Shown: in pieces, positions 19,529-23,626 of the stretch
Layout: each line of letters starts with the position of its first letter
Numbering within the stretch: the first letter of the stretch is position 1
Origin: a virus
Virus record (IMG/VR): IMGVR_UViG_3300031507_000013
Location: 1-44,758 of that record
DNA: 44,758 nucleotides
Strand: one strand, 5' to 3'
Translations under genes and position numbers: made by a program
The notes under the pieces: generated by a model
The model's input: the letters and a program-made list of their open reading frames with translations, nothing else
What the model was told of the DNA's origin: nothing
Databases searched by the model: none

Positions 19529-19760
19529 TGTTACGATCCACCTTAAGCCCGTTCGTCCGGTCGAGGTAAGCCTTCACAGCGGGCCAATACCGCCGATTTC
19601 CCCACAAAGCTTTCTTCTGTGGGAAGTTGGAACTGCGGTCCCGGTCGAGTGCGTGGATCGCGGCATATGCGATCTTCTCCGGAACGCCCATGCGCCGGAT
19701 CAGCTCTGCGTCAGTGACGTACAGACCTTCGTATGCGGTTTCAGTGGCCTGCTCGCTCAT
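19521..19760 (-). CDS. winged-helix DNA-binding protein, excisionase-like family (79 aa)
   Basis: LYVTDAELIRRMGVPEKIAYAAIHALD...ALWGNRRYWPAVKAYLD resembles a family I recall beside integrases in Rhizobiales prophages (unverified). Confidence 0.5.
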   Translation of the reverse strand: MSEQATETAYEGLYVTDAELIRRMGVPEKIAYAAIHALDRDRSSNFPQKKALWGNRRYWPAVKAYLDRTNGLKVDRNIS

Positions 19761-20209
19761 GGCCGCCTCTCCCGATAAACCTTCTGCGGTGTCTCTACCG
19801 CTCTAGCTACATCCCACCCTCGTTTAATTCGAGTTCTGGCTACGTTTCTCCGAACGATCCTTCCGGCCAGGATGACGGCGTACTCTAGACTAAGCTCTTG
19901 TGCTCGGTAGACGACCAGAAGCGTGTTGCGCCGATTGTTCTGCTGCTCTTTGCGGGTTGCCCACCGGCAATTCGTCGGCTCGTAATCCTTATCTGTGTCG
20001 ATCCGGTCAAGCGTATGCGCTCGGGATGGTTTTGAACCCATATCGGCAAAGAAATTCTCAAAGCTCACCTTCCATCGATCGCAGACCCTGATCCCGCGCC
20101 CGCCATAATCACCGAACTGTTTGTAGGTCGGCCGATAGCAGCGCGTCTTCATGCTGATCCATGCGCGGTATTCCGGGACGGTGTACATTCCATGGGTCGG
20201 CGCCGGCAT
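19757..20209 (-). CDS. HNH-like nuclease / DNA-binding protein (150 aa)
   Basis: YRAWISMKTRCYRPTYKQFGDYGGRGIRVCDRW...HTLDRIDTDKDYEPTNCRWATRKEQQNNRRN, a pattern common in phage proteins annotated as HNH endonucleases. Confidence 0.5.
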   Translation of the reverse strand: MPAPTHGMYTVPEYRAWISMKTRCYRPTYKQFGDYGGRGIRVCDRWKVSFENFFADMGSKPSRAHTLDRIDTDKDYEPTNCRWATRKEQQNNRRNTLLVVYRAQELSLEYAVILAGRIVRRNVARTRIKRGWDVARAVETPQKVYRERRP

Positions 20210-22027: not shown

Positions 22028-22222
22028 CTATTCTCCCTGTGCGGTCTTTAATGAATCTTCCGGATAGCAAAACGACTTGCTATAGCCGATCGCGCTTTTG
22101 GTGCCGTCCTTCAATACGATCCACCAATGGCCGCCGCGGCCCTCGCCAGTGATGAGACCATTGAAGGCTGGCCGCTGGTCGCACCTCACCGTTACGCGAT
22201 CGCCCTTCTTAAGATCGTTCAT
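22028..22222 (-). CDS. hypothetical small protein (64 aa)
   Basis: Internal ATG at 22222 (MNDLKKGDRVTVRCDQ...). It overlaps the methyltransferase 3' end by 14 nt. Confidence 0.5.
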   Translation of the reverse strand: MNDLKKGDRVTVRCDQRPAFNGLITGEGRGGHWWIVLKDGTKSAIGYSKSFCYPEDSLKTAQGE

Positions 22223-23135
22223 CAGGTTTACCTTGAGCAGAAGCAAAGGCAACTTTCATGATAGCTCTCCCGATTGCTTCCGGGATTTGCGGGACGACTG
22301 CGTTGCCCAATCCTTTAAGCCTGTCCACCCGAGAGGGAATCCCATAAGCCACTCGACCCACGTCGGGTTCAATTGCCCAGACTGATCCGATACCGACATG
22401 GAGAGCATTACTTGCTTGCCCTTCTCCACGCGGCGTTTGATGGCCGGCGTAGATAGATTGCCTCTGTCCCGGTTGTCTGATGCACTCGGGGTCGGCCACA
22501 TTCGGTTCTTGACCGCCGTTGCCAGACCATCGCCGCTGGTAGCGCTTGCTCCCTTGCGGTTGTAATTCCCGTTGATAGTTGGCGTCGGCCATAGGGGAGC
22601 TAGAAAGTTCCGCGGCGAGCGCCCTGCTGAACGGAGGGCGACCGCTTTCGTGTTGCTCGCCTCCGGCGTCGGCAATAATCCAGACGCGATCTCGTCGGTG
22701 AGGGGCACCAACGGCGCTCGCCGGAATGCAATGCCATTCCGCGTCATACCCGATCTCGGCCAGGTCCCCGAGAACTGTTCCCATCCCTCGACTAAGCAAC
22801 GCTGCCACGTTCTCCACGATTGCGAAGCGCGGTCGAACCACGCGAATGGCTCGTAGGAGTTCCCGCCAAAGTCCAGAACGCTCGCCGGCAAGTCCGGCGC
22901 CGCCGCCAGCCGTGCTGATGTCCTGACAAGGAAACCCCCCGCAGATAACATCGGCCTCGCCCTCAATGAAGTCTCTGGTCGTGATGTCATCGTGACAGGG
23001 GACGTCAGGCCAGTGCTTGGCGAGCACTGCGCGACCGTAGGGATCAATCTCGCAGAACGCGACGGTTCGCATTCCGGCTCGTTCGAGCCCGAGGCTGAAG
23101 CCGCCAATTCCTGAGAAGAGATCGAGGACATTCAC
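22209..23135 (-). CDS. DNA (cytosine-5)-methyltransferase (308 aa in this frame)
   Basis: Motif I DLFSGIGG, motif IV GGFPCQD, motif VI IVENV, motif VIII APHRRDR, motif X LGNAVVPQ. The middle section (about residues 160-255) is low complexity. See the finding about the second open frame. Confidence 0.85.
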   Translation of the reverse strand: MNVLDLFSGIGGFSLGLERAGMRTVAFCEIDPYGRAVLAKHWPDVPCHDDITTRDFIEGEADVICGGFPCQDISTAGGGAGLAGERSGLWRELLRAIRVVRPRFAIVENVAALLSRGMGTVLGDLAEIGYDAEWHCIPASAVGAPHRRDRVWIIADAGGEQHESGRPPFSRALAAELSSSPMADANYQRELQPQGSKRYQRRWSGNGGQEPNVADPECIRQPGQRQSIYAGHQTPRGEGQASNALHVGIGSVWAIEPDVGRVAYGIPSRVDRLKGLGNAVVPQIPEAIGRAIMKVAFASAQGKPDERS

Positions 23136-23626
23136 TGTTGGCCTTCCGAAACATATGCATAGGTCTGGCCCTTTTGGACCATGATGATGTGAGGTCTGGA
23201 GACGCCAAATCGGTCGGCTAAAGACTGCTGCGTCACGATTCCGCGCAACCGTCTAATCTCCCGCACGTCGTCGGCAGTGAGCCTGTATCTGGGCAAACCC
23301 CTTCTCGGCAGACGCTCCTTTTTGTAGCGGTCGCGCTGGTTTTCACTGCGCGTTTTCCATCCAAGATGGGTCTGGTTGCAGCACCCCAGATGACCATTTC
23401 CGCAACTATGGGCCGCTTCATGATCGGGGGAAGGCGCTGGACCATGGGCCATAGTGCACATCAAAACGTGGGCTCGCCACATCTTGCCCATGTAGCCTAG
23501 CTGTCCGTAACCGTCTGTCACCCGCGCAAACGGATAAGGCAAACAGTCGGTTCCGGCATAGGAAACATGGGCGATGATCCACGCCGCACACTTTCCTTTA
23601 CCTTTGTTGTAGCCGCCTGATGTCAT
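23132..23626 (-). CDS. HNH endonuclease (164 aa)
   Basis: AAHSCGNGHLGCCNQTHLGWKTRSENQRD (His-Me finger with Cys ligands). The C-terminal part is HTH-like (IVTQQSLADRFGVSRPHI). Its stop overlaps the MTase GTG start (GTGA). Confidence 0.75.
   Translation of the reverse strand: MTSGGYNKGKGKCAAWIIAHVSYAGTDCLPYPFARVTDGYGQLGYMGKMWRAHVLMCTMAHGPAPSPDHEAAHSCGNGHLGCCNQTHLGWKTRSENQRDRYKKERLPRRGLPRYRLTADDVREIRRLRGIVTQQSLADRFGVSRPHIIMVQKGQTYAYVSEGQQ

Follow-up and report, generated by a model that had tools for sequence, protein, structure and literature searches.

M.HhaI and M.HaeIII, C5 cytosine methyltransferases of the PF00145 family, are single chains read in a single frame, in which the stretch between motifs VIII and X contains the recognition domain and motif IX. 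Two-chain enzymes have also been described. In M.AquI from Agmenellum quadruplicatum (Karreman & de Waard 1990), the large subunit carries motifs I-VIII, the small subunit carries motifs IX and X, and the two are encoded by consecutive genes (PMC3404938). In M.EcoHK31I (Lee, Kam & Shaw 1995), which belongs to the E. coli HK31 restriction-modification system and recognises YGGCCR, the alpha gene also contains, in another frame, the coding sequence of the beta chain, and the chains associate for activity (PMC2836561, PMC3404938). Alpha and beta supplied from separate plasmids give full protection, and this heterodimeric nature made the enzyme attractive for targeted-methylation engineering (PMC2836561). 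The target-recognition domain of M.EcoHK31I has been placed on alpha (PMC2836561, PMC3404938). The subject here is a methyltransferase gene on the minus strand of a 44,758-nucleotide viral sequence (IMG/VR record IMGVR_UViG_3300031507_000013, positions 1 to 44,758; hereafter the window), in which the conserved motifs are divided between two overlapping open reading frames (ORFs), called frame A and frame B. A preliminary description of this gene did not name M.EcoHK31I as a two-chain precedent (PMC2836561, PMC3404938). Literature searches for a phage-wide nested arrangement found nothing relevant.

The locus in all likelihood encodes a heterodimeric C5 cytosine methyltransferase of the M.EcoHK31I type, with a catalytic alpha chain in frame A and a separately translated beta chain in frame B. 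Both M.EcoHK31I and the predicted window enzyme are C5 methyltransferases made of two polypeptides, and in both the ORF of the small chain lies wholly inside that of the large chain in another frame. The alpha chain is about 309 amino acids (aa) long in M.EcoHK31I and 308 aa in the window. In the window the small chain carries motif IX and is under its own selection, although the alignment of that motif to the one in M.HhaI is weak. The window differs in its setting, as its gene is probably an orphan in a phage replication module and M.EcoHK31I is part of a bacterial restriction-modification system. With M.AquI the predicted window enzyme shares the two-subunit organisation, with motifs I-VIII on the large chain and IX on the small one, but its genes are nested and motif X is in the alpha frame rather than on the small subunit with motif IX. 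The M.AquI layout does occur in a relative of the window gene, gp78/gp77 of mycobacteriophage Abdiel. With M.HhaI and M.HaeIII the window shares the fold of the catalytic large domain, motifs I-VIII and motif X. The arrangement is of a known, though rare and little-annotated, kind and is not a new mechanism.

The motifs on the two chains are complementary (I, IV, VI, VIII and X on alpha, IX on beta), which supports a two-chain enzyme. In the proposed model, the 308-aa alpha chain would form the catalytic large domain that binds S-adenosylmethionine (AdoMet), consisting of motifs I-VIII, a probably disordered tether of ~70-90 residues and then motif X. The beta chain, most likely 231 aa long and starting at ATG 22951, would contribute the elements of the small domain, namely a strand-rich N-terminal part, modules built around xPTP units and motif IX. 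The xPTP modules most likely recognise the target sequence. Both chains would be translated independently from one mRNA, with separate initiation of beta, and would then associate into the active enzyme. Methylation of the phage DNA by this enzyme may allow escape from host restriction, with no partner restriction enzyme involved.

Judged by its profile and structural matches, alpha is the catalytic large domain of a C5 cytosine methyltransferase, with motifs I-VIII followed by a non-conserved tether and motif X. It matches PF00145 over aa 1-161 (E=7.7e-41, above the gathering score in the Pfam search) and TIGR00675 with 114 bits (cut-off 100.65), and in PHROGs the family phrog_363 ('DNA methyltransferase') matches aa 1-299. 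A profile of 60 alpha homologs matches M.HhaI residues 12-173 (E=5e-27), and in the same profile the motif X sequence LGNAVVPQ aligns to HhaI 298-318 (FGNSVV). The AlphaFold2 (AF2) model of alpha superposes on the large domain of HhaI and HaeIII over ~162 columns, with a root mean square deviation of 3.2 Å. Its predicted local distance difference test (pLDDT) scores are 87-96 in most of the N-terminal half and close to the C-terminus, and drop to 35-45 over aa 187-257, which are without secondary structure. All of the frame-A motifs quoted in the preliminary description (FSGIGG, GFPCQD, ENV, HRRDR and LGNAVVPQ) are present in the ORF translation, and its remark that the middle of frame A looks out of frame agrees with a Pfam match that covers this frame over aa 1-161 only.

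Motifs I, IV, VI and VIII of the C5 methyltransferases thus occur in order on alpha, as established by the PF00145, TIGR00675 and M.HhaI matches. Motifs IX and X do not follow a variable recognition region on one chain: motif X is on alpha and motif IX is found solely in frame B, being absent from frame A. The enzyme would belong to the C5 methyltransferase family only as a two-chain assembly.

The strings previously quoted from frame B (FAWFD...WPRSGMTRNG, three xPTP units and LNPTWVEWLMGFPLGWT) can all be read in the three-frame printout. The same bases encode VWIIADAG in frame A and SGLLPTPE in frame B, and likewise EPDVGRVAYGIPSRVDRLKGLGN in A and LNPTWVEWLMGFPLGWTGLKD in B. The preliminary description had held that the lack of any family match would speak against frame B, but this frame matches phrog_1008 ('DNA methyltransferase') over residues 64-272 with an E-value of 1e-31 in PHROGs. 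It has no Pfam match, and searches of the Pfam and NCBIfam libraries with the window proteins found no model for beta. Codons 61-291 of frame B have more than 7,500 database relatives, the best of them 50-65% identical. In an alignment of beta (A1), L194, N195, P196, W198, G204 and P206 are invariant and VEWLM is nearly so. It is the motif content of frame B, not its openness, that is far beyond chance.

The openness itself was compared with a null model in which the alpha protein was held fixed and its synonymous codons were shuffled. After shuffling, 4.8% of trials left the +1 frame without a stop along its full 291 codons, and 48% left its first 60 codons open. In the homologous loci, ~70% have stops in the upstream part of frame B. 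Diversity by codon position in 67 non-redundant loci gives a similar picture for both ends of the gene. In the stretches that encode alpha aa 1-90 and 281-308, variation is by far the highest at frame-A position 3, with 0.57-0.64 (0.62 in aa 281-308), as in ordinary coding sequence read in one frame. Frame-B codons 1-94 and 273-291 are unconstrained, with the variation at frame-B position 2, which is frame-A position 3. The openness of the ends of frame B is consistent with chance. The gene had been described as open in two frames end to end; both ORFs are indeed open, but the ends of frame B are partly incidental and to that extent the description was overstated.

Between these ends the pattern changes. 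The third position of conserved alpha codons has a diversity of 0.58 in aa 1-90, of only 0.41 in aa 96-159 (P=1e-4 versus aa 1-90) and of 0.11 in aa 254-275 (P=1.5e-7 versus aa 1-90), and recovers to 0.55 in aa 276-308. The two dips coincide exactly with the conserved N-terminal part of beta and with motif IX, and indicate constraint on the synonymous sites of alpha at those places. Synonymous variation that destroys frame B in the homologs had been put forward as an argument against a frame-B protein; over the conserved parts of beta, variation at alpha synonymous sites is suppressed.

In the middle segment (~93 codons), protein-guided codon alignments were too gappy, and they were replaced by frame-agnostic alignments together with Smith-Waterman scoring of 62 non-redundant loci in which all three frames were treated equally. 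The median score is 29 for frame A, 50 for frame B and 30 for frame C, against 25-26 for shuffled partners. Frame B scores higher than frame A in 1767 of the 1891 pairs, and in all comparisons with the window (61/61). Neither A nor B has a stop in this segment (0/62 loci each), whereas 56 of the 62 loci have stops in frame C, which averages 3.6 of them. In the frame-agnostic nucleotide alignments, variability is highest at frame-B position 3 and lowest at frame-B position 2, equivalent to frame-A position 3. The middle of alpha is thus kept open without selection on its sequence, and the middle of beta is selected. Since frame A is stop-free through the middle in 62/62 loci and motif X follows in frame downstream, alpha appears to be read straight through. 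Both frames are under purifying selection, in complementary segments. Of the explanations offered earlier, that of an overprinted second protein is borne out: frame B is under its own purifying selection from ~codon 95 to 272, and it supplies the motif IX that frame A lacks.

The two-frame layout extends well beyond the window. A viral set of 80 loci has alpha chains 49-66% identical to that of the window, and frame structure was compared for 72 of them, to which three reference phage loci and the window were added to make 76 loci. In 72 of the 76, a +1 open stretch of 150-340 codons contains LNPxWVEWLMGF, against open stretches of only about 35-130 codons in the +2 frame, and motif X is in the alpha frame in nearly all. 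A second set of 80 bacterial and archaeal genome loci from many phyla was found by means of beta. Wherever motifs I, IV, VI and VIII were found in these loci, motif IX is +1 relative to them, save in a handful; motif X returns to the alpha frame in about 58 loci and shares the frame of motif IX in 2. A locus with every motif in a single frame does not occur among the 80. In tblastn searches, the same phage records match both frames of the window gene, in different record frames, and a tblastn search of frame B against plasmids gave five matches, which shed no light on M.EcoHK31I. The nested two-frame layout is, by these predictions, common in phages.

The likeliest start of beta is ATG 22951. 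This assignment is drawn from a GAGGG 8 nucleotides (nt) upstream, from the presence of a frame-B ATG 17-47 nt 5' of the PCQ codons in 53 of 67 loci, and from the codon usage that creates this ATG: the Asp codon involved is GAT in 39 of 65 loci, compared with 34% for other Asp codons (P=1.5e-5, not phylogeny-corrected). A strict regular expression for the FAWFD element missed most loci and was put to descriptive use only. It is unlikely that a longer, 291-aa beta is made from ATG 23131 through coupling to the upstream HNH gene, whether instead of or besides the 231-aa form. That ATG directly follows the upstream TGA (TGAATG) and shares a GGAAGG with the GTG of alpha, and frame B is open from this position in the window and in ~22 of 76 loci. 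ATG is a stronger start codon than GTG, which also counts for the long form. On the other side, the extra 60-94 codons are without frame-B selection, most homologs have stops in the extra stretch, and the 29% of loci that are open agree with a chance expectation of about 25%.

The preliminary description had also suggested that an active single chain might be produced by recoding, with a +1 shift into frame B and a shift back near 22310-22322 into frame A, or that the two frames reflect indel errors. The first shift would lie close to the end of motif VIII, at ~22664-22685. Recoding has some appeal, as the joined segments reproduce the canonical motif order of monomeric C5 methyltransferases and the junctions fall where both frames are conserved; in the relatives of the Abdiel, B22 and L004 types described below, the frame changes lie elsewhere, and each would give a canonical enzyme if shifts occurred. 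It is nonetheless very improbable. A search for slippery sequences, not extended to stimulatory RNA structures, found no X_XXY_YYZ heptamer in frame A. The proposed zones and their surroundings are free of homopolymers, and the single one present, GGGGGG at 22935-22940, is far from the junctions. Nor does frame A have a stop or a rare-codon trap that would stall ribosomes. It is kept open over about 93 non-conserved codons in 62/62 loci, which would be unnecessary if ribosomes left it there. Two efficient opposite shifts in one gene have no known precedent. In M.EcoHK31I, separately expressed chains suffice (PMC2836561). Frameshifting is neither indicated nor needed, and indel errors do not fit a layout that is inherited across loci with 49-66% alpha identity and across many phyla.

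There is still less reason to regard frame B as a non-functional shadow of conserved frame-A codons, with its database homologs being miscalled ORFs. Such a shadow does describe the first ~94 and last ~19 codons of frame B (1-94 and 273-291), where the variation falls at frame-B position 2. Gene callers do pick frame B over alpha, including for the window (P0001), and on its own an open +1 frame is not a very improbable outcome (P=0.048). The idea nevertheless fails for the core of frame B, since the middle is conserved in B and not in A, variation there is concentrated at frame-B position 3, alpha shows less synonymous variation where conserved beta segments overlap it, and motif IX, which C5 methyltransferases need, is in frame B only. 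The earlier proposal that the resemblance in frame B is a by-product of frame-A conservation thus applies to its ends and not to its core.

Least credible of all is an origin from a single-frame methyltransferase, either by decay into a pseudogene or through two compensating indels in the assembly: a compensating pair would look exactly so in one sequence and some relatives are annotated as pseudogenes or split genes, but the same layout recurs in hundreds of independent, deeply diverged assemblies, both frames are intact and under selection, and the single-frame version is found in 0/80 genome loci, so that retention of the layout across the viral and genome loci excludes sequencing error, compensating indels and recent pseudogenes.

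Several observations weigh against a heterodimer of the M.EcoHK31I type, or against details of it. Both chains are predictions from the sequence, and the likeness to M.EcoHK31I is one of published layout. The recognition-like modules of the window are on beta and the middle of alpha is unconserved and predicted to be disordered, whereas in M.EcoHK31I the recognition domain has been placed on alpha. The sole match in an hhalign comparison of the beta profile with M.HhaI pairs beta 187-210 with HhaI 267-290, which is motif IX, at an E-value of 0.26 that is not significant; the weakly aligned segments are LNPTWVEWLMGFP in beta and LHPRECARVMGYP in HhaI. The HhaI sequence used for this comparison is partly confirmed by the alpha-profile match. 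Against PDB sequences, the beta profile gave only chance-level matches to glycolipid transfer proteins, and the AF2 model of beta alone is of low confidence (pLDDT 60, predicted template modelling score 0.25). As for the start of beta, Shine-Dalgarno-like matches 5' of beta starts are weak and inconsistent across homologs, beta can start only further downstream in 4 loci, and ATG 23131 is an alternative. The features of the locus are collected in Table 1.

Table 1. Features of the two-frame methyltransferase locus (positions in the window).
Feature	Position	Strand	Remarks
Alpha gene (frame A)	22209..23135	minus	GTG start, 308 aa; from ORF list and three-frame translation
Frame B ORF	22256..23131	minus	+1 relative to frame A; ATG start, 291 codons; from ORF list
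Predicted beta gene (frame B)	22256..22951	minus	231 aa, ATG 22951 to TGA 22256-22258; wholly within alpha gene
Upstream open part of frame B, codons 1-60 from ATG 23131	22952..23131	minus	Probably not functional coding sequence
Candidate beta ribosome-binding site GAGGG	22960..22964	minus	8 nt 5' of ATG 22951; seen in the sequence, weak
Possible alpha ribosome-binding site GGAAGG	23142..23147	minus	6 nt 5' of GTG 23135
Motif I FSGIGG (AdoMet binding)	23100..23117	minus	Frame A aa 7-12; nearly invariant in alpha alignment A2
Motif IV GFPCQD (catalytic Cys70)	22920..22937	minus	Frame A aa 67-72; F68, P69, C70, Q71 and D72 invariant
Dual-coding zone 1, alpha motifs VI-VIII over beta N-terminal part	22658..22849	minus	FAWFD...SWRTWQ...WPRSGMTRNG...LLPTP in beta
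Motif VI ENV	22806-22814	minus	Frame A aa 108-110
Motif VIII HRRDR	22686-22700	minus	Frame A aa 146-150
Middle segment	22380..22658	minus	Frame B, conserved recognition modules; frame A aa 160-252, non-conserved stop-free tether
xPTP unit LLPTP	22664-22678	minus	Frame B
xPTP unit LWPTP	22580-22594	minus	Frame B
xPTP unit MWPTP	22487-22501	minus	Frame B
Beta motif IX LNPTWVEWLMGFPLGWT	22322..22372	minus	Overlaps alpha EPDVGRVAYGIPSRVDR; dual-coding zone 2
Motif X core GNAVVPQ	22287..22307	minus	Frame A; LGNAVVPQ is aa 276-283

Read in the +1 frame, the N-terminal sequence of beta also occurs in Synechococcus phage S-H1, mycobacteriophage Abdiel, Propionibacterium phage B22 and an E. coli prophage. 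In phage S-H1, an unannotated nested ORF contains FAWYD...WPRQGLMRNG...LLPTP...LNPSFVEEMMGFPIGWT. In the annotation of Paenibacillus phage Shelly (NC_041909), a 'g55 internal gene' in the +1 frame of the methyltransferase gene (gp55/gp56) has xTP units and ends in LNPEWVECLMGFPIGWT. In Shelly, unlike the window, motif X of alpha lies ~30 codons past the end of beta, so that the two do not overlap, and beta is only ~36% identical to that of the window. Both Shelly, where motif IX is away from motif X, and Abdiel, where beta has IX and X in one frame, speak for a conservation of motif IX that is independent of motif X of alpha. No functional study of Shelly gp55/gp56 was found.

The E. coli prophage homolog has a nested layout like that of the window. 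Of two such loci, in E. coli PCP07014 (L086, 2785-3546) and E. coli PT62 (L085, 2398-3157), RefSeq lists one as a pseudogene ('internal stop'). It gives the other as a methyltransferase of 245 aa, and leaves the 251-codon +1 ORF with LNPQWVEWFMGWPIGWT unannotated. A blastn search of the gene against 5,426 E. coli genomes gave four partial matches, all to prophage methyltransferases, and no EcoHK31I-like restriction-modification locus. Among PDB entries, 3g7u, a putative methyltransferase from the E. coli prophage CP-933R, matches aa 3-184 of alpha (E=2.7e-17), and this protein may belong to the nested family.

Other relatives are divided differently. Abdiel gp78 and gp77 are consecutive genes, and their beta has xPTP units, motif IX and motif X in one frame. 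The annotated start of gp77 (1618 in L001, 1468-2202) appears to be too far downstream, as a reading from GTG 1468 meets no stop in the beta frame; the added segment contains the conserved W.EFSGTFPTSGMTRSG element and overlaps gp78 by about 170 nt. Propionibacterium phage B22 gp50 (L090, 3-1655) is a long single methyltransferase ORF in which motif IV is interrupted by an intein-like insertion (...VVHN|CQD...). The frame changes at another point in this gene, as the last LLPTP, motif IX and motif X are in the main frame, and the first recognition part, with WPTSGMTRDG, LLHTP and LLPTP, is in a 143-aa +1 ORF (850-1281). In a further type (L004, 1530-2437; L087, 1501-2382; L088, 1501-2586), motifs I-II (FSGIGG...AFCEI) share a frame with beta, and the resulting ORFs are 290-361 aa long. 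The -1 frame holds motifs IV-VIII and X, and the conserved 'WP' (CGA/CAA TGG) gives rise to an ATG in it. This arrangement occurs in two lineages only about 50% identical and looks inherited, not like an error; it may be a differently split enzyme or a frameshift. A PF00145 flag is found on about a third of the top 120 beta matches, and motif I is in the beta frame in ~3/80 genome loci. Two homologs of alpha, P0161 (431 aa) and P0221 (418 aa), have an insertion of ~130 aa just before motif X, flanked by a duplicated EPDVGRVA-type segment. It may be mobile, or it may be a duplicated region that encodes motif IX in the other frame.

A broader interpretation is more tentative. It could be that a large clade of phages and prophages, spanning many phyla, uses the +1 frame to encode the recognition small domain (xPTP units and motif IX) as a polypeptide of its own, with the middle of alpha serving as a mere stop-free 'shadow' tether, and that the break-points shift between lineages, giving the nested type of the window, the AquI-like type, the type with motifs I-II fused to beta and the B22 type. 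Such a clade would represent an old and evolvable platform of overlapping genes. This reading, if true, departs from the published view of M.EcoHK31I, in which the recognition domain is on alpha. It would also concern a clade for which Pfam and NCBIfam have no model and in which the annotation of the examined relatives often misses or splits genes. The window gene itself is a clean and deeply conserved case of dual coding, of textbook quality, with selection signatures that part the alpha-only, beta-only and both-coding segments. Its family would be a source of many natural heterodimeric methyltransferases.

There are consequences for annotation. The source gene call for the window is the 291-aa ORF of frame B (P0001, 100% identity), and the 308-aa catalytic chain is left out; the best match to this chain in the protein collection is 73% identical. 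Gene callers that keep only one of the two ORFs set an annotation trap, and relatives are found annotated as split genes, as pseudogenes or without the nested ORF. A phage methyltransferase expressed from the 'annotated' ORF alone would probably be an inactive enzyme.

The gene lies in a module for phage replication and recombination that also contains HNH endonucleases; among the neighbouring ORFs, none is obviously a restriction enzyme. The methyltransferase is probably an orphan, with a role in anti-restriction. The product of the ORF immediately upstream (23132..23626) matches HNH endonuclease families, and its TGA (23132-23134) overlaps the GTG of alpha as GTGA. Together with the TGAATG at the start of frame B, this junction suggests translational coupling of the HNH and methyltransferase genes. 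Two HNH endonuclease genes are close to the methyltransferase gene on the minus strand, the one just mentioned and another at 19757-20209.

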